Under the pieces are notes generated by a model that made no database searches, was not told the origin of the DNA, and saw only the letters and a list, made by a program, of their open reading frames with translations. The translations under genes were made by a program, and so were the position numbers. A stretch of DNA of 63,975 bases, the filler included, from Craspedostauros australis (taxonomy: Eukaryota), in the NCBI GenBank assembly GCA_030167865.1. It is 12 parts of 12 records of this genome, joined end to end, with 100 filler letters (N's around TTAATTAATTAA, not from the genome) between each part and the next. Parts side by side here need not be neighbours in the genome. Positions count along the whole stretch, not along the records: positions 25,705 to 51,929 come from JALAGF010002870.1; 11 more parts are not named here. One strand, written 5' to 3'. Shown piece by piece: positions 28,822 through 44,636 of this stretch; the first letter of the stretch is position 1, and every line of letters starts with the position of its first letter.

Positions 28822-31800
28822 ATGGACACATCCCAACTCGCCCTCGTTGAGGCACTTTGCGAATGCCTGTACACGGGCATACCCGCCAAGGGCGAGAACG
28901 GCGAGGCCATCACCAGACAGGAGGCCCAATCCAGATTGCTCAGCCTGCAGTCCAGCGCAGACTTCATCCCGCAGTGCCAATACATCCTGGACAACTCCAA
29001 ATCGCAGTATGCTCGACTGGTCGCCACCAACTCGCTCATCGAACTCATCACGGGGCATTGGAACTCCTTCACTGTCCCGCAGCGCATCGATATCCGCAAC
29101 TACGTCCTGGGATACCTCGCCAACAACGGCCCGCAGCTCTCCGACTTCGTCACCACCGCGCTCATCAAGCTCGTGTGCCGCATCACCAAGCTGGGTTGGT
29201 TCGATGACAAGGTCCATCGAGAGCTGGCCGACGATGTCACCAAATTCCTGCAGGCCACAGTCGATCACTGCATCCTGGGACTCAAGATCCTCAACCAGCT
29301 CGTCGACGAATTGAACATACCCACTTCTGGCCGAACGCTCACGCAGCACCGCAAAACATCCGTCAGCTTCCGCGATGTCTGCTTGCTCAAGGTATTCCGA
29401 TTGGGCCTCACCACCCTCAAGCAGCTGCAAACACGATCCATCAGTAAGTCGATCAATTCATCGGTGCCACTATGTGTGCGATCATCCACTTCCTACTGAT
29501 GCATTTGCATCCTTCACTCTCTCACACTCACACATTTCTTCTTCATCCATTCGCGCGTGCACAATCACACACACGCATGCACCCAATGCTGCTGCTCAAT
29601 ACTCAATGCTCACCGTTCCGCAGCCGCCGACCAACGACAGGAGGTCATCATGGGGGAGCAAGCCCTCTCGCTTGCGGTCCGTTGCTTGAACTTCGACTTC
29701 ATCGGCACCAATCCAGACGAATCCACGGAGGATGTGGGGACCATCCAGGCACCAACCTCCTGGAGACCGCTGCTGCAGGATTCGGCGACCACAGACTTGC
29801 TCTTCGATTTCTATGCCACCACGGACCCACCGCGATCATCGAAGGCCATGGAGGCCATCATCCTCATGGCCTCCATCCGGCGGTCCCTCTTCCCAGCCGA
29901 CAAGGACCGCGCTGCCTTCCTGGGCCGTCTCATCACCGGCATCCGAGAGATGCTGTCCAAGCAAACCGGACTGCAGCACCAGGACAACTACCATCAATTC
30001 TGCCGGCTGCTGGGTCGGTTGAAGGCGAACTACCAGCTATCGGAGCTTGTCAAAACGGAGGGCTACCTGGAATGGCTAGAGCTGGCCGCCAACTTCACCG
30101 TGCAATCGATTCGGAACTGGCAGTACTCCACCAACTCCATCCACTACCTATTAAGTCTCTGGGGTCGCTTGGTCGCCGCAGTTCCCTACGTCCGACCGGA
30201 AACCGGCGCCACGGGACATGTGCAGCATCTCGAGACGCAGGTTCTGCTTGTCACGGAGACCTACATAGAAAGCATGCTGTCCAGCGTAGAGACGGTCCTG
30301 CGCAGCGACGGGGCGTTGGACGACCCGCTGGAGGACGACGGCTCGCTGAGGGAGCAGCTGGACCGGTTGCCGGTCATTTGTCGATTCCAGTACGGTCCCA
30401 TCGCGCAGCGCATTCTCAACAAATTCGATCCCCTGCTGGCGCAGTACCGCGACCTGATATCGTCGCTGGGTAACAACCCAACATCCAGCGCACCGCCGGA
30501 CGTGCAGCAGCGCATGGCAATCATCGAGGGGCAGATGACGTGGCTCACCTACATGGTCGGCGCGATCGTCGGTGGGCATTCCTGGTCGTCGGCGCACATG
30601 GGGGAAGGCGAGGAGACGATCGACGCCAGCTTGTCGCGTCGGGCACTGCAACTCGCACAAGGTATCGACTACCGACTCACCTCATCGAACGGGGTGGGAC
30701 GATGCGATGCCAAGCTGGAGCAGGCCTTGCTCTTCTACTTTCAGAATTTCCGTCGCGTTTACATGTTCATGTGGGATCAGATGTCGGCCTCCAGCTCCAG
30801 CAACGATGACGGCCTGTCCGTCTCCGTCGGCATGCTCGTCGCCAAGCTAGATTCGGCACCGTCCGCCAAGCAAAAGATTTACAGGCGCATGTTTGAGCAT
30901 TTGGGTCTGGGTGATCACACTGTGGTGGCCAACATTATCGTCACCAAGATGGGGAACAACCTGAAATACTGGCCGGAGGACAATGACATCATCGGCAAAA
31001 CGCTGGATCTGCTCCACGACATGGCCAGCGGCTACAGCAGCTCCAAGCTGCTCCTCACGCTCGAAACGGTGCGCTTCCTGGCACGGCACCACACCGACGA
31101 TCACTTCCCGTTCCTCAAAATCCCATCCAACTGCCGTCACCGCACCACCTTCCACGCCACGTTGACGCGTTTGCTGCTGTCCCCGCAGGGTGAGGACAAG
31201 CTGGGGTTGACATTCGCGCAGTTCTTGGAACCGATCGTCACCGTGGTGGGACAGCTCGGGGCGCTCGCTCCAGCCGCGTTGAGGGATGAGACCTGCCGTT
31301 CTCCTCTGATTGGAGTCTTCCGCGACTTGCGAGGCATCACAGCCAGCCTGCACAACCGCAGAACGTACAGCCAGCTATTTGAGATCATGTACCCGCAGCA
31401 TTTGCCGTTGCTGTCGAAGGTCGCGGACGTTTGGTACGATCAGACCGATGTCATCATCAGCCTCCTGCGGTTCCTGCACGAGTTCTGCCACAACAAGGCC
31501 AACCGCGTCAACTTCGATCAGAGCAGTCCCAATGGGATCCTGCTGTTCCGCACCACCAGCGATGTCGTTTGCGCGTTTGGCAGACGTTTGCTCGCCACGC
31601 CGTCGCCTCCCAGCGGAGATCCATCCATTTACAAGAAACGGTACAAGGGATTGGCGCTGTCGCTCGAGGTGCTCAACTCGGCGCTGGGTGGCAACTACGT
31701 CTGCTTCGGTGTGTTCGAATTGTACAAAGACCCTGCATTGGAGAACGCGTTGGACGTGGCATTGCAGCTGGCGCTGTCGGTGCCCATGGAAGACATCAAC

Positions 31801-32543
31801 GCGTATCCCAAACTGAGCAAGGCCTACTACTCCTTCGTCGAGATCCTGTTCCGCGGTCACAAGAAGACAATCTTCGCATTGGACTCCAACGTCTTCATGC
31901 AGATCATGAACACGGTCCACGACGGGTTGCAATCCAGCGAAGCCGCCATCAGCTCCTTCTGCGCCAACTCGATTGATCATATGACCACATTCTACTTCAA
32001 CAACAAGGGCAAGGACAAGATCGAGATGCGAAACTTGAATCAGGTACGTTATCACTGCAATACTGGTGTTGGTGTTTTTGGCTTTGTACGAGCATTTGAG
32101 AACATTGGAACATGTCGATGCGCAACGACAACGACAACTGGCTCTCACAACTTCACATCATTTGTTTCCTTTTACCTTTCCTTCGAATTCTCCACGTGTC
32201 TCCAAAACCTTTTCTCGCAACACAGCACATTGCGGCACAGCCCAATCTGTTCTCGAGCCTCACTGGAACTCTGTTCAACCTGCTGCTCTTCGGGCCACCG
32301 CAAAACCATTGGGCAGTCATGCGCCCGATGCTGAGTCTCATGTTGGCCAGTGAATCCAGCTTCGAGGCGTACAAGAACTACCTGATCGGCACCCAGACAC
32401 CAGAGAACCAAGCCAAGTTGAACGAGACACTGAACAAGCTGCTTGCCGATGTGAACCGCAGTTTGGACAGCGCCAACCGAGACCGGTTCACGCAGAAGCT
32501 GACGGCATTCCGTGTGACGGCACGGCAATTCCTGACCATATAG
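28822..32543 (+). CDS. XPO7: Exportin-7 / RanBP16-like (exons 28822-29443, 29624-32043, 32226-32543)
   Basis: RIDIRNYVL.YLA, RITKLGWFD, FDFIGTNPDESTED.GTIQ.P..WR, CRLLGRLKANYQLSELV, LGGNYV.FGVFELY.D, NRDRFTQ; canonical in-frame introns. Confidence 0.93.
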
Positions 32544-33351
32544 GCATAGCGAAGAACAGAGGAGAGGAACAGGGCTCCTGGGGTGGTGCGATGTGATTCA
32601 ATGCGTTGCATTGCATTTCATTGGATCATGTTGCACAAATGCACGCAACTTGCTCGCTGGGTATTTTGGCCATTGCTGCCTGATGAAACGACCAGTGTCG
32701 TCATGCGGCAGAGCCGTGTGGAGTAGCGTAGAGTAGCACTGATTTAGTGATGGGCAATTTGACTCAACCATGATACGTTCTGTCTGGAGAGAGAGAGAGA
32801 GCATGAAGTAATTGCACAGGAAGGAATCGCAAATAGAAACACTAAATGTTAGGCGACCATGTTGCTGGAGAGAGGCAGAGCAGTGGAGCCGTACGAGCGA
32901 TCTTGTGCAGAGGTACGACCACCATGATTGCTGGGCATCACAAGGTGCGGAAAGGTCGTGTAATAATTCCGCAATGTGTCGATTTCGCCTCATCTCCCTG
33001 AGGAGTTGGAGACGTGAGGAAGGCAACACAACCGTTGGACATGTGACGAAAATGTGCGAGGCGGACATGGACACAAACATTGTTTCACTTGTGAACACGC
33101 CGGTGTGCTCTCTTCTCGGCATACCAATCGTTGACCGCTCCCCACTCAACACAACAACGGCCAATTGGCTGCACCTGCGTCTCTTCCTGCTTTGTCGAAA
33201 CGCAGAACTGTGCATGTTCCTACCATAGACAGACAGAGATTATCGAAAACGAACAGAAGCACGCAAAACAACGATCCGAGCAGCATCGCATCGCAGTATC
33301 CTACGAGCGCTCTCAAGGCTGCATTGATTGCCGCCGCTGACGATACCTACA

Positions 33352-35084
33352 ATGGCAAGGGACGTTGACGCAAGCACAATAGGCATCATGGGTCATGGCC
33401 AACGCCTGGATGCGGAGGGCAAGTTCGCTCCGCGCGTTCGACGCAGCGAGAAGCGCAAGAACACAACACAGAAGTTGACCATACTGGCGGGGATCATCAG
33501 CTGCATCACGATGCTCACCCAAGCCGCGGTGCTTTCTGGTTTCTCAAAGCTTGCCGGCAGTGATGCGAATCACGTTAAGGCTTCCATTGCGTTGCGAGAG
33601 AAGTTTCATGGGTCGGACAACGCTGAGACGAACGTAAGAAAGGATGTCAGCAGTCCGACGCAGCCAAAGGAAGCTGTGGCAACACAGCCGACTGCGAAGG
33701 CGAAGTCGAACGAGACTGAGAATGAAGCGGACGCATTGGACGCCGACGGTAAGAGAGGTTACGTCGCCGATCTATCGCCGTCCCGCTTGAGTACCTTCGT
33801 TTGGGACAAGAAGGATGATTACCCTTGCGACGACACGGCTGTCGAAGGTCCCGAGGGACGCACCGTCCTGGAGAAGATCAGATCGGGATTGAAGGATTCG
33901 AGGGAGAAGATCAAGCAGAGGAGTGGCGATGAGAAAGTTCCCAAGATATTGTGCATGGTGTACACTGTCGATCTGCCGAAGGCACGCAAGAACATGGAAG
34001 CCGTGGTGAGCACGTGGGCCAAGGAATGCGATGGATTCATCGCGGCATCGAACATCACGGACGATACCATCGGCGCTGTCAATATTTTGCATCCTGGACC
34101 GGAGATCTACAACAACATGTGGCTCAAGGTGCGATCCATGTGGATGTATGCCTACTCGCATTATCTGGATGACTACGACTACTTTCACATCTGCGGTGAC
34201 GATGTGTACCTGATGATGGACAACTTCCGTTCGTACCTGATGGGTGAGGAGATGAGGAAACTGCTGAAGGAGGGATACATCGATGCGCTGATGAAGACTC
34301 AGCTCAGGCGGATACCCGAGATTAGCACCACCGCCCAACAACAGCCGCGACCACTGCTGCTGGGACATCCGCGCGCGTTCCGGGGCCTCTTCCCGTACGG
34401 CGGACCAGGGTACACGCTGAACCGAGAAGCTGTGAAGAGGCTCAATGAGCAGCTCTTCAACGACCCTGAAGACGGCATCAACAGCGTGCAGGAATCACGC
34501 GAAGATGTGTACATGTTCTACGCCTGTCGCAAACTCGGGTGGAGCATCGCCGACTCGAGGGACAGCGAAGGGGCGTGGAGGTACATGGAGCACGACGCGC
34601 AGCACATGTTCCACGTAAGTGCGGTGCCGAGTTGGAATGGAACGGCGTCTGTTGTGCGATGAGTTGTAGCGTGTTGCGCTGTTCGATGCTGTTTCGATGT
34701 GCTCCCACGCGAGTATAGTGCTACTGTATGTATGCTCTCCTTCTGCCGCATTGAACAATTTCGCAATCTGTTCCGCAACATGCATTCGAGTTCCTCACGT
34801 CTTTCTCCATCCCCTTTCTATATTTGATGATGGAATACAAACACCAACATTCGTCCAAACATTACCGTCAACAGTACAACGTGAAGCCACTCGAAAAGCT
34901 CTTGGGACCTGGCACGCACAAGGACGGCATCAATGAAGTGTCGAAGGAGACGGTGGCGGGGCACTTGAAGTTGGATCGAGCGATGAAGCGGCGGAAGTAC
35001 CTGCCTCCGCCTGGGATCGATTCGTATGACATGCTCTTTCGTTACCACGAGATATTGGATGGAAGATGCACGGGGGAATCGTAA
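33352..35084 (+). CDS. GT31-family glycosyltransferase (core-1 beta-1,3-galactosyltransferase/Fringe-like), type II membrane (exons 33352-34614, 34875-35084)
   Basis: N-terminal TM helix; KILCMVYT, STWAKECDGF, YNNMWLKVRSMW, YDYFHICGDDVY, GGPGYTLNREA, EDVY; in-frame GTAAGT..CAG intron. Confidence 0.85.
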
Positions 35085-35566
35085 TGCGCTCTGGAATGAA
35101 GTGAGGTCCTGGAATGGAGCAGAGTGTCATAATTGGATCGATGTACATGCTAGAGGAAGCGAAGGTAGATAGTCTCCAACATCAGTCCCCGTCAAGGTCC
35201 GGGTTTGTCCGTCATGCCGAATTCCGCCAAACCCAAGAAGATTTGAAATTCAGTCGAACTGGTCGATGATTCAAAAACTCAGTCGTGGTTTTCGTTGATG
35301 GTTTCTCTTTGCACGACAGTCGCAGTGTGTTGGTTGGAGATGTGTGCGCAACCCTCGCGGAACATCGTGTCGAAAACGGAACCAACGAGGCAGGATGCTG
35401 TGAATTTGTTCACCCTGTTGTCACGGTCGTCGTGGCGATTGTGGTTGTTCTTCTCCGCAGTTGCAGATCGCGCTCTTGGTGACACAACTCAACGACACAG
35501 AGATATCGCACCACATTTCCACAGAACAATCCATAAATCAACCTCAAGGAACAAGAACCGGACAGG

Positions 35567-38087
35567 ATGTCTCTTTCTCATGCAGACACCACCGCGATGG
35601 CGCCATGGATGGTCTTGGCAAACACGGTGCTCGAGACGGAGGTAAGTATGCACGGAGCATGTTGATTGCTCGGGCCTTGTTGATGCTCTTCTGCGAATGT
35701 TGGAATCAATCATGTTCTGTGTCATGCATTGGAAATGGGTGCCTTCAATGGCGCATTGGTGCAAGGCGCATTGGTGCAAGGGTCGACCAGACGTTGGGAT
35801 GAGCATCTGCAGAAACGTGCGGTGTGGAGCATTGCGTGAGCATCGCACTGGCATCAATCCACAGTCGATAAGATCTTGGCTGATGTTGCTGATGCGGCCC
35901 AACATCCACGTCTGCAATACGAGCTATTATATGATGCGCTGATGTTGTTCTGATCGCACTGTGGTACCAAAACGTACTCAAGCTCATTCATCTGCTCAAC
36001 ACTCTCGTCGTACCTTCCTCTCGCAGGCACTGCTCTTCGAAGTGCTCGCCTTCCTGGACGAAAGTGAAAGGTTTGAATTCATGTTTGTCAGCAAGACATT
36101 CGCAGGCCTGCTGAACAGCGAATCATCCTTCAAATGGAGGTTGAAGCGTCTGCATGCCGAGTACTGCGTGTACTTCTCCCCGCATCACAAGCTGTACGAC
36201 ATCACATACCGCGAGCTCTTTCTGCAACGCTCCTCACGCCGCCATTTGTGGATCCCGGCAAAGGTGGACCGCGCAGGTGTCGTTGCGGCCAGCGATGCTG
36301 TCAACAGCAGTGACGCCGCGGACCAAACCAGGACTGAAGATGGCACCACCATCGACACGTCACCTACCAAGGAGAGATTCCAGGTGCGCGTCAGTGCAAG
36401 GCTGAAGCCCAAGTCCGCCGAGCTCTACAAGGCTCCAGGTGCCAATCCCAACGGAAGCCCAAAGAAGTTGACGCTGCCGCTCCACCAGCGACTCGCCCTC
36501 ATCCGCCTCAGCCAGAATCTCGATTCCAACGAGGATGCCATGAAGCTGCTTCACGAGCACGGGGGCATCGGCTGGCAGGAGCGAGCCCTTCGGAAGACGA
36601 ATTCCAAGTCCACCACGCAAGTTCCAGACACCATGTTCTTCATCTCCATGAACAACAACAATGACCAAGACGATGTCGACCATGGTGACGATGGCGAGGA
36701 GAAGATCAATGACGAGGATGAGGATGGAGCATCGGGCGAGAGCAGCCAAGACGCGCAAGGCGAAAAGGAGAACAAGGACTCCCCGATGGACCTCCCGTCG
36801 CTGGCAAGCGGCATTACTCAAGTGGACGATAAGAACGGACGCGTCGTGATTGCAGACAGCACCAAGGGACTGCGCGAGCTTTCCTTCGACGGCGTTCTGC
36901 GCGACACCTGCTCGCAATCGGTGACGTACGATCGCATCGCACATGGAATCGTGAGCGACTTCCTCTGCGGGTACAACAGCACCTGTCTTGTGTACGGTCA
37001 AACCGGTTCCGGCAAGACGTACACCATGTTCGGACATGAGGACTGCAGCTTCTCCGTCGACCCTTCGTCACCCACTGACGACACCGGCACATGTGACTAC
37101 ATGTGGGGCATCATTCCTCGCACATGCCAAGAGGTCTTCGAGGCCATCGAGTACCGCAAGTCCGAGTCCAACTTGAACAACCCCATCAAGTCCTGTCTCA
37201 CAATGTCCTACGTCGAGGTTTACGGAAACAACGTCAGCGATTTGTTGCACAAGAACAGAGTTTGTGGCCAAAGCCGTGTGGCTGCCCAACGATACGTGCT
37301 TGATGGATCCACGGAACTCCCCGTCCCATCCTTCGCAGAAGCCATGCGCCTGCTCAAGATCGGCCAGGAGCAAAAGCGAGTGGCTGCCACTGCCATGAAC
37401 GAGCGATCATCCCGTGCTCATTCCATCGTCATTCTCAACCTCGCTCAAACCTGTCGCAACACCGGCAAACGCGTCAAGAGCAAGCTCTTCCTCGTGGATC
37501 TGGGCGGTTCCGAGCAGTTGAAGAAGAGTCAGGCCAATGACAAGAAAGTCAACGCTGATGCTGCGACCAGACGCCAGCGCACGGATGAAGCCGTGCAGAT
37601 CAATCTTGGTCTGTTGGCACTGAAGGAATGCGTCAAGTACTTGGCGAAGGCATCGAGATCGGAGGATCCAGAGGAGGCCTTCATCCCTTACAAAAACTCC
37701 AAACTCACGATGCTCCTCTCGCCTGGCCTTGGTGGCAATTCCAAGACTAACGTCGTCGTCTGCGCCTCCCAGGAGGAAGCGCACGCACCGGAAACGATTT
37801 CCGCGCTGCGATTCGGGCAAGCTTGTGCACGAATCTCCAACACTGCCGACCGCCGATCTCACGAGGCCATGCTCCAAGACGTGATCGCCAATCTCGACAA
37901 GGAGATTGAGGACTGCACGAACCTCATCAAGAAGCACGAGCGGTGGGAAACACGACAGGAACGCCGCTCTGATGGGTATGGCAACTATGAGAATCATACC
38001 GTCTCGGAATTGGTTGGCGCTGAGAAGTATCACAAGACATTGGAAGCACTTCACAAGCAGCGCACGGCTCTAGTGGGCACCATGTAG
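35567..38087 (+). CDS. Kinesin motor protein with N-terminal F-box-like motif (exons 35567-35641, 36027-38087)
   Basis: P-loop YGQTGSGKTYT, switch I NERSSRAH, switch II DLGGSE, IPYKNSKLT, LGGNSKT, ETISALRFG. Exon 1 is inferred from a GTAAGT donor and TCGCAG acceptor in frame. Confidence 0.88.
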
Positions 38088-38369
38088 GTGCATGTCGCAT
38101 GTGCGCAGCCTCGAAGTTGCGTTAAAAGATCCCGTTCTGTGCATGCCCACGAGTAGTAGAAGTAGGAGGTAGTCCGAGTAATAACGCTTCATCCATTCAT
38201 GATTGAGTCTGACAACGCCGTAGCTCTGCATACTGACGGTGAGGGAGAAAATCGCTGACGTGCGAGCTAAGGCACGGATTGTATGTATATGTACTGCCTT
38301 GCAGAATGCATGAGTTGCCAACCTCTTGATCCCAATAGCATCGACAGGAGGACGTATCCACGTTAATGA

Positions 38370-39851
38370 TCACGCCTTGGAGAGGCTCGCTTTGGAGAGT
38401 CGCTCTTTGGATTGCCTTGCTTTCGATAGTTTCGCTTTGGAGTCCTTTACACGGTCTGTCCACCAACGACAGCGATCGAGGATTTCTGAGAATCGGAGAC
38501 CTTGGACACCGGTGAGTTCGGTGGGCATTGGACGCATGAAGCCGCTGAGTTGCTTGGGAAGGGCCTTGCGCAGCATCAACCGCATCGTCATCTCGAATCG
38601 CATCATGCTCGTTCGGGGCAAGGTGTTGTCCGAAATCTCACAGACGGCATGGGCATCCTCCAAGCGCTCGATGTTGTAATCCTGCAGGGCCTCCCGCCAG
38701 TCGTGATTGTGCTTGTCGAGCTTGGCGACTAGAACCTGAATATCCTGCAAGGCGGAGTTGCAACCGAGACCGACGGATGCTGACACAGCGTGTGCCGCAT
38801 CGCCGACCAAGACCACCTTGCCGTCACCCGCCGTGAGGGTGTTGCAATGGACTTTGAGGTTGCGACCAGGTCGGGATGCCAGAACGCGCGCCGCTTCGTC
38901 GAGCGACATCGCATCGGCCACGCGCGGCGAAACGTTGGTTCGGAAGTGATCGATGAGTTCCTGCGGCGTCGTCATGTCGGCGAAGGGATCGCGATGGTTG
39001 GGAAAGGCGTAGACGCCGCGGGCGATGTCGTCCTTGACCGGTATCAGCATGACCTGTCCCCCGTTGCCAGCGAACCAGCCGTGCGTGCGATCGACTGCGA
39101 TGTCCGTCCCGGCGACCGGGATGCTGAATGATCGGTACGAATACGGCGTCTTTTCCACCGTGCTGCGGAAGTGATTTTGCTCCGTCAGCTTGGTGCGGAT
39201 GGCCGATCTGCCACCGTCCGCCGCCACGATGTGATCGAACGACTCTTCGAAGCCCTGGTCGGTTGTCGCGACTTGCTTTTGCAGGCAGACGTCGTCGATG
39301 CCGCAGCCAAAGTGCAGGGACAGCGAGCTGGTGCAGTGCCGGTGCGGAGTCACGTCGTCAGATGCGATCGATGTTGTTGTTGCTGTTGTTGGTGTTGTCG
39401 CCACTGCTGTTGCCGTTGCTGATGTGGATGAGGTTGCGCCGCCCACCGCTGACAATGCTCCCGACGAAATGGAATCACCGACTGGGCTCTCATCGATCAG
39501 GCGGAGGTACTCCAGCATCCCGCAGGCAAGGGAGCTGCGCTCCACGTAGAATACATCATCGTCCTTTTCCGTGACGCGCGGCTTCTCATTCTGGTACACC
39601 TGCATCTTGGTCATCCACTTGCCGCGCTTGTCCAAGGACGCTTGCAGGCCCGGGACTCCGGCAAGCGCCGCAATTCCGGAGGCCTGGATGCCCATGGGAA
39701 ACGTGCGATCGTGATTGCTGCGGATGCCAGCGACCGTCAGCGGATCTGGCCGCTTCTCGAAGACGTGGACATTGTAGTTGGGATGCGTGATGAGGTGCTG
39801 CGCCAGCAGGAGACCTGCCGGTCCTGCTCCGCTGATGACGACCTTTACCAT
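38370..39851 (-). CDS. FAD-dependent monooxygenase (kynurenine 3-monooxygenase-like), copy 1
   Basis: GAGPAG, FEKRPD, AADGGRSAIR, VGDAAHAV..GLGCNSALQD. Confidence 0.9.
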   Translation of the reverse strand: MVKVVISGAGPAGLLLAQHLITHPNYNVHVFEKRPDPLTVAGIRSNHDRTFPMGIQASGIAALAGVPGLQASLDKRGKWMTKMQVYQNEKPRVTEKDDDVFYVERSSLACGMLEYLRLIDESPVGDSISSGALSAVGGATSSTSATATAVATTPTTATTTSIASDDVTPHRHCTSSLSLHFGCGIDDVCLQKQVATTDQGFEESFDHIVAADGGRSAIRTKLTEQNHFRSTVEKTPYSYRSFSIPVAGTDIAVDRTHGWFAGNGGQVMLIPVKDDIARGVYAFPNHRDPFADMTTPQELIDHFRTNVSPRVADAMSLDEAARVLASRPGRNLKVHCNTLTAGDGKVVLVGDAAHAVSASVGLGCNSALQDIQVLVAKLDKHNHDWREALQDYNIERLEDAHAVCEISDNTLPRTSMMRFEMTMRLMLRKALPKQLSGFMRPMPTELTGVQGLRFSEILDRCRWWTDRVKDSKAKLSKARQSKERLSKASLSKA

Positions 39852-40497
39852 CTCTCGATCCTGGTCTTTTGCTTTTGCTTTGTTCGCTGGTTTATGAATG
39901 CACGCGATGCACACTTTTGTGGGTGTGGGTGTTTGGAGGCGAAGAAGTGGAAGAGTGAGAACAAGATGGTGTGCGTTGTCTCTCCCATGTCGTCATGGGC
40001 TCAGTCATAACATGAACTTGCAGTACACGGCTGCGCATCATGATTTCATGATTGCGTCGTTGCGTGCCCATTTGACGATTCGATGTGAACAGTCGACTCC
40101 GCACAACACAGAACACAGGAGGCATCGTTCTTGTTCCATGAAGGTTCGCTTCCAGCTGTTCGTGTCACAACTCCAGCTGTCTTGCGTGACTGGATCCTTC
40201 TTGTTTCTCCCTTTCCTTCGCCTTCGCGTTGCGAAAAAACAGTCAAAAATTCCATTTCTCTCATTCTTGACATTGATTGACTCGATTGACTAATGCGAGG
40301 CAACTGAGAATTCGTCCTTTTCGACAAGAGAACGAGTTCTTTGAAAGGTGCGGTATAATAAGTAATTAGATGCAGTTTATGCTTGTTCCGAGGCAGTCCA
40401 ATTGATCAAACAATCAAGACATGCTATGAACATATATCTAGAGAGGCTCATGTCGGTGCCTGTGATTCCAATACGCATTCTGTACAACCTACATGCT

Positions 40498-41841
40498 CTA
40501 CGCTTCCTTCGCCTTGGGTTTTGAAGCCTTGACACGGTCGGTCCACCATCTGCACCGTCTCAACATCTCGGAGAAGCGCAGATTCTTCTTGTTGGTCAGC
40601 TCCATCGGCAGAGGACGCATCCATTTGCTGAGGATCTTGGGCAGAAGCCTGCGCAGGACCAACCGGAACACCATCTCGATTCGCATCATGCTCGTTCGGG
40701 GCATGGTGTTGTCCGAGAGCTCGCAAACGGCGTGCGCGTCCACGATATGTTCGCTGTTGTACTCCTGCAGAGCGGTGTGCCAGTTGTGATCGTGCTTGTC
40801 AAGCTTGCCGGCCAGAACCTGAATATCCTGCAAGGCGGAGTTGCAACCCAGACCGATGGACGCGGACACGGCGTGCGCCGCATCGCCGACCAGCACGGCC
40901 TTGCCATCGGGTGAGGTCAGCGCGTTGCAATGCACCTTGAGGTTGGTTGCGACGGGCGCGTTCAAGATGTTGCGCGCCTCGTGGTCTGGCAAAACATCGG
41001 CGACGCGAGTCGAGACGGACGTGCGGAAATAGTCAATGACTTCCTGTGCCGTCGTCATGCCGGCGAACGGATCCGCTTCCGTGGGAAAGACGTAAACGCC
41101 GCGAGCTTGTTCGTCGTTCAGGGGGACCAGCATGATCTGATCCGTGGCGCCGACGAACCATCCGTGCATGCGGTCCGTTTCGAAGTCCGTGCCCGTGATG
41201 GGAAGGCAGACGGGTCGATACGAAAATCCAATCGTCTCCACGGTGCTGTCGAAGACGTTCTTCTGCGTCAGCTTGGTGCGGATGACGGATCGGGCGCCAT
41301 CGGCCGCGACGATGTGATCGAAGGATTCCTTCGTGCCTTGGTCGGTCGTCACGACCTGCTCGTCGAGGCAGACGTCGTCGATGCCGCAGCCGAAGTGGAA
41401 GGAAAGCGAGCTGCTGGGATGGCGGTGTGGCAGCGATTCTGCGTCGTCTGTCGGCGCGGCGGCATCCGGGATGACATTGTCGTTGATAAGCTGCAGGTAC
41501 TCCAGCATGCCGCAGGCCAGCGCATGCCGTTCCACCATGAATGAGGGCAGCTCCTTTTCAATCAACCGCGGCGTATCGTTGTTGTACTGCTGGATCTTCT
41601 GCATCCACTTGCCGCGCTTGTTCAGCGAGGTTTGCAGGCCCGGGATCTCTTCCAGCGCTCCGAGGCCGGAGCCTTGGATGCTCATGGGGTACGTGCGGTC
41701 GCCAGTGCTGCGCTTGTCGGCACCTGTCAGCGGGTCTGGCCGCTTCTCGAAGATGTGCACATCGTAGTTGGGATGCGTGATGAGGTGCTGCGCCAGCAAG
41801 AGGCCTGCCGGTCCTGCTCCGCCGATGACGATCTTGACCAT
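40498..41841 (-). CDS. FAD-dependent monooxygenase (KMO-like), copy 2
   Basis: GAGPAG, AADGARSVIR, VGDAAHAV..GLGCNSALQD. Confidence 0.9.
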   Translation of the reverse strand: MVKIVIGGAGPAGLLLAQHLITHPNYDVHIFEKRPDPLTGADKRSTGDRTYPMSIQGSGLGALEEIPGLQTSLNKRGKWMQKIQQYNNDTPRLIEKELPSFMVERHALACGMLEYLQLINDNVIPDAAAPTDDAESLPHRHPSSSLSFHFGCGIDDVCLDEQVVTTDQGTKESFDHIVAADGARSVIRTKLTQKNVFDSTVETIGFSYRPVCLPITGTDFETDRMHGWFVGATDQIMLVPLNDEQARGVYVFPTEADPFAGMTTAQEVIDYFRTSVSTRVADVLPDHEARNILNAPVATNLKVHCNALTSPDGKAVLVGDAAHAVSASIGLGCNSALQDIQVLAGKLDKHDHNWHTALQEYNSEHIVDAHAVCELSDNTMPRTSMMRIEMVFRLVLRRLLPKILSKWMRPLPMELTNKKNLRFSEMLRRCRWWTDRVKASKPKAKEA

Positions 41842-42551
41842 GTTGTGTGTTTTTGTTGTGTTTGAATGTTGCTGTTTGGTTTGCGTTTGATTGGTGTGGC
41901 TTTTGGTTTTTATGAGGTCTTGGTGAGTTGTTGTGAGAGGGAGAGAGTGGAAGCGGAAAAGACTGGTGACGTCGACTGGTTGCATTTCGTGGTCATTCAT
42001 TTATTCATTCGCTCTTACATTCGTTGTTCCTCTCCTGGCAAATGCTGCACAGAGAGTTTCCGCTACCAAGAAACTCGGTGGGTTCGGATCCACGCACAGC
42101 TCGTTCACAACGGAACTGCCTCGTGAAGAATTGGTTCTTGGCAGAGGATCCAATACGGCATCGAAGTACTTCACTCTTTTCCGTGCTGTTTTGATGTTGC
42201 CATGTCGTGCTGTATCTTGCATTGATCTTGCCTAGAGTATTAGTATTAGAGTAGAGCAGAATTTTGAACTGACTCTGCACAAAATAACTTGTGGAAGTGC
42301 TCATGTTTAATCCTGTTGGAGTGGTGATGAAATGTGTCTCCGTCGCGGTGTCAAGCAGGGGCAGAGTTCTTTCTGGTTTGTTTGTTGTTTCGTACCAATA
42401 GCCTGACACGACGTCAACCACCAAGCCTTCCGTTCCAAACATTGTGGTTGCTGACAGACCATCAACCATCACCCGTCATGTTATCTTCCATTCCTGTGAT
42501 GACGCCATCTGTCCACGCCAAGCGTAATATAATAGAATATTATGTAATGGA

Positions 42552-43904
42552 TCACACCTCCACCATCGGTGGTTTGGAAGCCTTGACGCGATCTGTCCAC
42601 CAGCGAGATTGTTCGAGCATCTCCGTGAATGACTTGGTTTCATCCGACATGACGTCGATCGGCATGGACCGCATATGCTTGGAGATGGCCGTGGGCAAAG
42701 AACGCTTCGCAATCATGCGCCCCATAAACTCCAAACGCATGCGCGTCGTGACCGCGACGGAATGATCGGAAAATTCGCGCACGGCGTTTGCCTCGGCCAT
42801 GTGGTCGGCGTTGTACTGTTGCAACGCCTTGTGCCAATCATGATCGTGCTGGGCCAGCTTGCTGCACAATACCTGCACGTCGTGCATGGCCGAGTTGCAA
42901 CCCAACGCGAGCGACGACGACATGGCGTGCGCGGCGTCGCCGATGAGTACGGCCTTGCCATCGGGCGTCGTCAGAGCGTTGCATTGCACGCTCAAGTTGC
43001 ATCCGACGGGATGTGCGAGGATGCGTTCGGCTTCTTGCATGGGAATCGCATCGGCGAGCAGCGGCGAGACGGTGGTGCGGAAGTAGTCGATGACCTGCTG
43101 CGGCGTCGTCATGTCCTCGAAGGGGTCGTCGCCGTTGGGGAAGACGTAGAGGCCGCGCGCCGTCTCGCCGTCGATCGGGATGACCACCAATTGGTGGCCG
43201 CCGATCGAGAACCAGCTGTGCAGGCGGTCTGGTTGCACGACGGCGGGGTCCGTGGGGATGGCGAGGGACCGGTAGGAATGGGAGGTCTTCGACATGGTGC
43301 TCGTGAAGTGGTTTTGCTCTTTCAGCCTCGTGCGCACGACAGACGTCGCTCCGTCCGCCCCCACGATGTGATCGAAGGACTCGGTAGTGCCTCTGTCGGT
43401 CGTCACGGTCTGCTGGTCCAGCGAAACATCGGCGATGCCGCAATCGAAGTGCAGGGACAGCGAACTGGAGGGGTCCCTTTGCGCAGTGACGCGGTCGGGC
43501 TCCTGCGATGGCGTGAAAGACCCCGAAGCGATGGCCGGATTGTCGTCGATGGCGCGCAGATGCTCCAGCATGCCGCAGGCAAGGGAGTTGCGCTCGATGA
43601 AGAAGGACGGCGCGGACTTGTTGATCAATCCCGTGCCCTTGCCTTTGTAGGTCTGCACCTTGTCGATCCACTTGCCGTACTTCTCCAGCGTTGGTCGCAA
43701 GCCTGGGACTCCCGCAATCGCCGGATTGCCACATCCCTGGATGCACATGGGGTAGGTGCGGTCTTTGTTGCTGCGGATGCCTGCCATCGTCAGCAGGTCC
43801 GGCCGCTTCTCGAAGACGTGGACATCGTAGTTGGGTTGCTGGATCAGGTTCTGCGCGAGCAGCAGGCCTGCCGGTCCTGCGCCGCTGATGACCACTTTCA
43901 CCAT
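42552..43904 (-). CDS. FAD-dependent monooxygenase (KMO-like), copy 3
   Basis: GAGPAG, GADGATSVVR, IGDAAHAM..ALGCNSAMHD. Confidence 0.9.
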   Translation of the reverse strand: MVKVVISGAGPAGLLLAQNLIQQPNYDVHVFEKRPDLLTMAGIRSNKDRTYPMCIQGCGNPAIAGVPGLRPTLEKYGKWIDKVQTYKGKGTGLINKSAPSFFIERNSLACGMLEHLRAIDDNPAIASGSFTPSQEPDRVTAQRDPSSSLSLHFDCGIADVSLDQQTVTTDRGTTESFDHIVGADGATSVVRTRLKEQNHFTSTMSKTSHSYRSLAIPTDPAVVQPDRLHSWFSIGGHQLVVIPIDGETARGLYVFPNGDDPFEDMTTPQQVIDYFRTTVSPLLADAIPMQEAERILAHPVGCNLSVQCNALTTPDGKAVLIGDAAHAMSSSLALGCNSAMHDVQVLCSKLAQHDHDWHKALQQYNADHMAEANAVREFSDHSVAVTTRMRLEFMGRMIAKRSLPTAISKHMRSMPIDVMSDETKSFTEMLEQSRWWTDRVKASKPPMVEV

Positions 43905-44636
43905 CTTGCTTTTTTGTGACTCTTGATCGGATGCGTCTTCTGCGTTGTGTCTGTTTGTGTCGATCGTCGCAGGTATCAACGTTTGCTGGCTGTGCGGATT
44001 GTGATCACAAGCGCAAACGCATGCGCAACCACAGCGACGGGTCCATCTTCCACGAGCACGCGCGAACCACAGAACGCTCCAGTCGGTGCGTTGTTCGCGG
44101 CTTCTGCGGCGATCTTGCACCTCAAGATCGTCTCGTGGAGCCGCCCAAAAGAAAGATTCGGTCATGTCGATTGTTCGTCATCATCGCACGTCTGAGAATT
44201 GGAGTTTTACGTATTTGATTAATTACTTGCGTCGATGATAAATCTCGAACATCACGTGTTGTTTGTCAATTCCACTCCACTTCAAGTCGAGTTGGGACAC
44301 TTCACGCGAACCCATAGCGTGTGCAATGAGACGAGAGAGAGAGATGGTCCTCTCGTCTACTCTGCTCTACTCTACTCTACTCTACCATAACATACCCCAT
44401 TTCAACATATTACATCACAATCGAACTATGGCCATGCCTGTTGCAATACGCGTCATGAGACAGAGCGAGAGGAAAGGAGGGAGTACTCAGAGGTTACTCT
44501 GGAACAACGCATTCTCTGGAGCTGGTCTTGTTGCTGAGCAGGAATGAAAATGCAGATCGGAGTTTTCGTTTTCGCTGCAATCTTTCGACATTCGCCGTGG
44601 ACCTATGATTGCAGGTTGGTACCAGTCAGTCGCACT

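Follow-up and report, generated by a model that had tools for sequence, protein, structure and literature searches.

The window, that is, the whole stretch of 63,975 nucleotides of Craspedostauros australis DNA that was analyzed (filler included), contains on its plus strand a two-exon gene that runs from a start ATG at 35567 to 38087 and encodes a product of 711 aa. We confirmed that this gene fuses an N-terminal F-box to a kinesin (Table 1). Upstream on the same strand lie an Exportin-7-like gene (Pfam TPR_XPO7, E = 8e-77) and a two-exon gene that is weakly galactosyltransferase-like (Pfam E = 0.11), in which run X1 has a contig that joins the two sides of the 260-nt GT..AG intron after 34614. 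Downstream, three tandem ORFs similar to each other are FAD-dependent monooxygenase-like; the one nearest the kinesin gene matches Pfam FAD_binding_3 (E = 2.5e-19), and the other two were judged by likeness.

Table 1. Positions of genes, exons and protein features around the F-box kinesin gene, counted along the window
Feature	Positions	Strand	Remarks
Exportin-7-like gene	29500-32543	+	
Galactosyltransferase-like gene (weak)	33328-35084	+	two exons
Exon 1	35567-35641	+	25 aa, C-terminal end VLETE; start Met and first turn of F-box helix 1; without Met-Gly
Intron (predicted)	35642-36026	+	phase 0, 385 nt; donor GTAAGT, pyrimidine-rich acceptor, CAG end
Exon 2	36027-38087	+	686 aa and stop, uninterrupted frame
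F-box core	36027-36134	+	three short helices (exon-2 residues 2-7, 12-18, 23-29); predicted Skp1 interface residues 1-30
Post-F-box linker helices	36135-36251	+	W..L..E.G.Y.P..W..LF...R..W; ranks with the most conserved stretches of the N-terminal module
Motor first strand	36375-36410	+	RxKP motif; residues 117-128
Insert within motor	36411-36806	+	about 130 residues
Insert helical block LPLHQRL...W	36468-36578	+	conserved
Insert acidic disordered stretch	36618-36773	+	after the helical block
Remaining kinesin motor	36807-37832	+	residues 261-602
P-loop GQTGSGKT	36996-37019	+	
Switch I NERSSRAH	37398-37421	+	
Switch II DLGGSE	37497-37514	+	
Altered L12/alpha5 motif YKNSKLTM	within 36807-37832	+	
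C-terminal helix / beta-hairpin / helix unit	37860-38075	+	72 aa, replaces long coiled-coil stalk; conserved ERW and GAE
Monooxygenase-like ORF 1	38370-39992	-	
Monooxygenase-like ORF 2	40498-42000	-	
Monooxygenase-like ORF 3	42552-44177	-	

Splicing is needed because read-through of exon 1 leads to a stop and the exon-2 frame has no upstream Met. First exons were scored with an N-terminal profile built without the window's own sequence. Among 48 ATG/GT candidates, the three that use the 35642 donor scored highest (87.3-88.0 bits) by a small margin, the next donor reaching 86.0 bits and exon 2 alone 81.7 bits. Intron retention was ruled out, as it leaves no start codon and a lower score against the same profile. 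The last residues of exon 1 align with the corresponding stretch in diatom homologs, and several genome-derived homolog models start or change near the intron position, which may be read as consistent with the intron. Contigs of run X1, taken by guess to be RNA, cover 37026-38760 as well as the spliced joint in the upstream gene, and none lies over 35259-37015; the long X1 contig takes in the 3' ends of two genes that converge and does not show a single transcript. An earlier sequence-only reading had placed the F-box motif in the same exon as the motor, which holds for most of it but not for its first five residues, which lie in exon 1.

Profile, profile-versus-PDB, fold and predicted-complex tests support the N-terminal module as a divergent F-box. 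The Pfam F-box (PF00646) matches exon-2 residues 2-35 marginally, its 21.2 bits (E = 2.6e-4) lying just over the cut-off of 20.5. A family profile of 41 N-termini, compared with a database of 177,635 PDB sequences, gave 15 matches at E ≤ 10. Fourteen are named F-box proteins, FBXO3 being the best (E = 2.8e-4), and the fifteenth, a chain without a name, comes from the entry that also contains FBXW19 and FBXW21; the linker helices align with the FBXO3 linker in this comparison. The model of the 81-residue N-terminal module (pLDDT 92) consists of three short F-box helices and two linker helices. When its fold was ranked against 48,161 chains (VIA), places 1-6 went to Cdc4, FBXO31, Fbs2, FBXO3, FBXW8 and SLY1 (Z 6.3-4.0, rmsd 3.4-5.2 A, 72-78 aligned residues), all with Z below 8 and each too low to decide alone. 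Foldseek returned nothing at E ≤ 0.001 for the module model (best 0.47) and kinesins only for the whole-chain model, and the clusters returned by the ESM Atlas all bore kinesin names, with no F-box family among them. The SCF receptors Cdc4, FBXO3, FBXO31, beta-TrCP and SLY1/GID2 likewise have linker helices with a W..LF-type motif behind their F-box. The domain past the linker is a WD40, LRR or beta-barrel in those proteins, whereas here it is a kinesin ATPase.

An N-terminal Leu-Pro is common in F-box proteins and is not obligatory. It is absent from this protein, as the sequence-only reading had remarked of its F-box-like motif. The missing LP is not disqualifying, because the F-box of GID2/SLY1, also without LP in profile alignments, has been solved with ASK1 and some family members keep the Pro (42 of 116 at one profile column, 19 of 101 at the next). 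In diatoms, conservation is lowest at the start of helix 1, and the Thalassiosirales form is eroded further than that of this protein; many non-diatom members have a canonical start with Pro, and the choanoflagellate member P0465 has a textbook-like F-box. The hydrophobic pattern of the F-box is preserved in 143 aligned sequences. Among the top five Pfam rows per protein, F-box rows were found in 4 of 71 full-length homologs, one of them above the cut-off. The Pfam F-box was also seen at E ≤ 1 in 9 of 41 N-termini and, nowhere above the cut-off, in 6 of 27 distant members. The family has been overlooked because its F-box lies below the Pfam cut-off in nearly all members and databases label the proteins as plain kinesin or KIF5.

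The genome holds Skp1 genes and three cullins. The canonical Skp1 gene (L002) has three exons, and P0123 is its full-length match. In a complex model of the F-box module with this own Skp1 of the organism, the score was 0.67, versus 0.01 for the best of three controls, a pass that may come from likeness to solved Skp1-F-box pairs, this being a textbook pair, and that shows likeness rather than binding by this copy. Contact agreement between runs was at least 95% and partner pLDDT at least 55; alignments were unused, and the partner chain was without the exon-1 residues. The mark applied to such models was reached by 51 of 78 solved pairs and 2 of 108 mismatched ones (39 of 65 and 2 of 126 for eukaryotes). 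The predicted interface places F-box residues 1-30 on Skp1 residues 80-84 and 112-165, which we take to be the known F-box site. The F-box identity proposed earlier is supported by the above-cut-off profile match, the three-helix fold, the PDB and fold rankings and the predicted Skp1 interface, and none of the computational outcomes that the sequence-only reading would have counted against it was seen. We consider it very likely that the F-box binds Skp1. Additional Skp1-like genes were observed, including L001 (G000:C4821), in which the frame ends short of the last helix, and a divergent tandem pair, L003 and L004 (G000:C5615); any of the genome's Skp1-like genes could be the true partner. 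On sequence comparison the best matches of the cullins were cullin-4A and cullin-3, and none was assigned to cullin-1.

The kinesin portion matches Pfam Kinesin (PF00225) at E = 2.6e-76, and the fold of the whole model matches kinesin motors (E = 1e-24), the closest solved motors being kinesin-1 (E = 2e-41, about 32% identity). The motor is complete, as the sequence-only reading had it, but not continuous: a spacer separates the linker helices from its first strand, which is in turn parted from the rest of the motor by the insert. The P-loop, switch I and switch II are near-invariant in 88 homologs, with DLGGSE and SSRAH as family marks. A dead pseudo-kinesin was ruled out by the intact ATPase motifs. 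The arginines of the canonical YR..KLTR (YRDSKLTR), for which kinesin-1 mutagenesis indicates a microtubule-binding role, are replaced, here by Lys and Met, and Arg occupies the two positions in 0 of 75 and 1 of 75 matched members. Past the motor the chain continues for 84 residues; the median in 58 members is 146 residues. The whole-chain model (pLDDT 82, pTM 0.84; 167 of 686 residues with pLDDT below 70) suggests that F-box, motor, insert and hairpin pack together as one rigid unit.

Some databases label proteins of this kind as kinesin-1 (KIF5), with which they have an intact P-loop and switches in common. Membership in kinesin-1 was ruled out by the absence of a long coiled-coil stalk. Unlike kinesin-1, the protein also has the 130-residue insert after strand 1, DLGGSE for DLAGSE, SSRAH for SSRSH and INLG for INKS, and its basic L12/alpha5 residues are replaced. 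Among the genome's 28 kinesin matches it is the sole kinesin of its kind, scoring 481 bits against the family profile where the next scores 212. Many members (e.g., P0027, P0045, P0094, P0111 and P0122) have a longer tail with GFG..YG.G and a conserved C-terminal end K..YSG.SA, both absent here, which may serve as a cargo- or substrate-binding or autoinhibitory element. Weak matches to a C-terminal SAP domain (P0354, P0435) and to N-terminal EF-hands (P0464) were all below Pfam cut-offs.

A first homolog search gave 924 matches. Of the 120 listed, the majority align over almost the entire query, including the N-terminus, and those with names are diatoms, Triparma, Ochromonas and one labelled Alexandrium. 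That entry (P0055, Alexandrium tamarense) has a Thalassiosirales-type N-terminus, is possibly contamination and was not counted as a dinoflagellate member. The N-terminal profile alone gave 209 matches at E ≤ 0.001 among 1.84 billion representatives. Of the 150 listed, 120 have the kinesin insert and 74 reach the motor, and the 30 without a kinesin part are mostly short fragments. The N-terminal module is therefore almost confined to these kinesins. Three long proteins without a kinesin part (P0250, P0366 and P0379) were set aside as unrelated, having repeat-type matches to a short stretch. In 69 proteins checked, the N-terminal module was found in 64, the insert in 68, the motor in 69 and the tail in 66. 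A look-up of 30 proteins, many of them unnamed, yielded choanoflagellates (Salpingoeca kvevrii, S. helianthica, Choanoeca perplexa, Diaphanoeca grandis), a euglenid (Entosiphon sulcatum), a cryptophyte (Cryptomonas curvata), a haptophyte (Pavlova), green algae (Pterosperma, Tetraselmis chui, Chloropicon primus) and Chromera velia, Incisomonas marina, Epipyxis and Rhizochromulina marina. With the diatoms and other stramenopiles, the architecture occurs in six supergroups; the sequence-only reading had suggested stramenopile proteomes as the place to search, and it is found there (diatoms, Triparma, Ochromonas). No animals, fungi or land plants were among the member names seen. A chance motif or an assembly chimera was ruled out by the identical architecture in many independent records. 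This is a conserved, pan-protist family rather than a single-gene oddity.

A motor-domain tree was built from 35 selected members, with 16 further kinesins of C. australis, a single genome, as the outgroup. The F-box kinesins form one clade on one side of a branch (100/100), and a long stem branch (2.29) separates them from the genome's other kinesins. Diatoms group with Triparma (100/99) and stramenopiles with Chromera (99/93), and green algae fall in another clade; the placements of choanoflagellates, Entosiphon and Cryptomonas are unsupported. The inner tree largely follows the species tree, which would fit vertical descent from an early eukaryote, with transfer or transcriptome contamination as alternatives.

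A Met-Gly start is found in 68 of 142 members, and Ser/Thr at position 6 in 52 of 142. These 142 are the members with a complete start after dereplication at 70% (346 examined, 284 with module and insert, 180 with a complete start), and they are related, so that the 68 are not independent events. For comparison, Met-Gly occurs in 3 of 115 Skp1 homologs and at 121 of 2,487 background Met positions (4.9%). It is present in choanoflagellates, Entosiphon, Chromera, Epipyxis and centric diatoms, and absent from the green algal, haptophyte, cryptophyte and Cylindrotheca members. The window's protein starts with Met-Ser and lacks the combination of Met-Gly with Ser/Thr at position 6. Because Met-Gly is spread across lineages, the pattern suggests an ancestral N-myristoyl anchor with several losses. 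A parallel is offered by Toxoplasma TgFBXO1, an F-box protein whose Gly2 N-myristoylation is needed for targeting to a membrane and microtubule scaffold (PMC6685633); the accessible text of that paper mentions kinesin zero times, and the analogy applies to the Met-Gly members only and is not a test of homology.

The clade was glimpsed earlier and not described. Wickstead, Gull and Richards 2010 (PMC2867816) list a Kinesin-X12 with three members (Aureococcus 53621, Monosiga 38064 and Thalassiosira 262186), explicitly not counted as a family. All three trimmed supplement rows, compared by eye, have the switch II DLGG(S/C)EQ and switch I SSRAH of the F-box kinesins, and the Thalassiosira row has distinctive stretches in common with the Cyclotella homolog P0051. 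On this signature the F-box kinesins appear to match X12. One of the three architecture columns in the supplement gives F-BOX-KISc for the Monosiga member and the other two KISc only, and the stramenopile members (Aureococcus, Thalassiosira) are KISc only in all columns; the main text, as far as accessible, mentions neither an F-box nor X12. Phaeodactylum is without an X12 row in the table of that study. The same supplement holds a Batrachochytrium protein (BDEG_00161, FBOX-WD40-KISc) that also joins F-box and kinesin in one predicted protein. It is a single 2,007-aa gene model with WD40 repeats that belongs to Kinesin-4/10, a kinesin family other than that of the F-box kinesins here. The accessible text of Richardson et al. 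2006 (PMC1434745) has no mention of an F-box, and that of PMC4327156 and PMC12816148 describes no such fusion. Our literature search found no description of an F-box kinesin or of a motor/SCF adaptor, although one may exist in subscription journals, motor-protein databases or supplements. The sequence-only reading had treated the protein as a possible single-gene novelty; it instead corresponds to a published, uncharacterised X12 with one automatic F-box call in that supplement. What is new relative to X12 is that the F-box is family-wide and that the members span six supergroups, together with the Met-Gly signature, the insert in the motor and the hairpin.

Our preferred reading, to which we give a probability of about 0.5, is that of an SCF adaptor whose kinesin part, ATP-gated and probably non-processive, keeps it tethered to microtubules, ancestrally at the membrane. 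The F-box is predicted to bind the C-terminal helices of Skp1, and Skp1 would, judging from F-box biology, bridge to a cullin-1/Rbx1 core. The motor has the motifs for ATP hydrolysis and would bind microtubules or tubulin in a nucleotide-gated manner, probably weakly and non-processively, given the lack of a long stalk and the replacement of two microtubule-binding arginines. Together with the family-specific insert and the hairpin, the motor would keep the ligase at the microtubule, where it would present a substrate, candidates being tubulin, a microtubule-bound protein or a membrane protein; it is viewed as a substrate-presenting module because it occupies the position of the substrate-binding domain in other F-box proteins. 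The Met-Gly signature suggests that an ancestral N-terminal myristoyl tied the protein to a membrane, whereby it would have worked at membrane-microtubule contacts, and that this anchor was lost in the window's protein and in Cylindrotheca members. Cylindrotheca are pennate diatoms without flagella, and a purely flagellar role was ruled out by the members found there.

The evidence for Skp1 binding would also fit if Skp1 were bound outside a ligase and served the motor structurally or as its adaptor for cargo, in the manner of the yeast non-SCF complexes Rcy1-Skp1, Ctf13-Skp1 and RAVE. A role in membrane traffic is compatible with the Met-Gly signature, and the poorly conserved start of helix 1 in diatoms lies near the cullin in solved SCFs. 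Most Skp1-bound F-box proteins, however, assemble into SCF, and the canonical Pro-containing start is kept in many non-diatom members; we regard a non-ligase role as unlikely. A related question is whether the F-box still binds Skp1 or survives as a relic, a structural subdomain packed on the motor, insert and C-terminal hairpin. The rigid unit suggested by the whole-chain pTM, despite the residues of low pLDDT, could be read in this way, as could the concentration of N-terminal conservation in the linker helices and an Arg rather than the LP start, and the failure of most members to reach the Pfam cut-off. Packing of linker helices on the following domain is, however, ordinary in F-box proteins, as in Cdc4 and beta-TrCP, and the intact hydrophobic pattern, the passing Skp1 complex model and the textbook-like F-box of P0465 all argue against loss of binding, which makes a relic decidedly improbable.

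The sequence-only reading had linked the protein to microtubule transport or mitosis, which nothing in the analysis supports. A processive transport or mitotic motor carrying SCF as cargo to microtubule ends or the spindle would agree with the intact ATPase motifs, with the position of the motor close to the N-terminus, with the short stretch resembling a neck that comes after helix 6 and with the likeness to solved kinesin-1 motors, and membrane-anchored monomers could move in teams. Against this, what comes after the motor is only a helix-hairpin-helix of 72 residues instead of a long stalk, the YR..KLTR arginines are replaced, no tie to mitosis was found, and the family signature points toward a membrane anchor; we hold a processive motor to be quite unlikely. 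Lastly, the F-box might act mainly as a built-in timer that drives the ubiquitination and turnover of its own motor, with no other substrate. F-box proteins are auto-ubiquitinated in SCF without bound substrate, and Pfam shows no recognised substrate-binding domain in this protein. Retention of the whole architecture across supergroups, insert and hairpin included, would nevertheless exceed the needs of a degron, and we consider the timer highly improbable.

Returning to the microtubule-tethered SCF adaptor, a bolder form of it can be put forward only tentatively, and we think it rather doubtful as a whole: a kinesin family as old as LECA that has disappeared from animals, fungi and land plants and whose motor would itself be the SCF substrate receptor. 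The protein would then be a myristoyl-anchored, nucleotide-gated, cytoskeleton-sensing E3 ligase that uses its ATP cycle to probe the microtubule lattice or tubulin and ubiquitinates whatever it has bound. With the distribution and inner tree of the F-box kinesins, the tentative X12 would become a kinesin family in its own right, probably an ancestral one. If the preferred reading is true, ubiquitination would be coupled directly to the microtubule cytoskeleton within one chain, and a ubiquitin-linked motor would be added to reconstructions of early eukaryotes.
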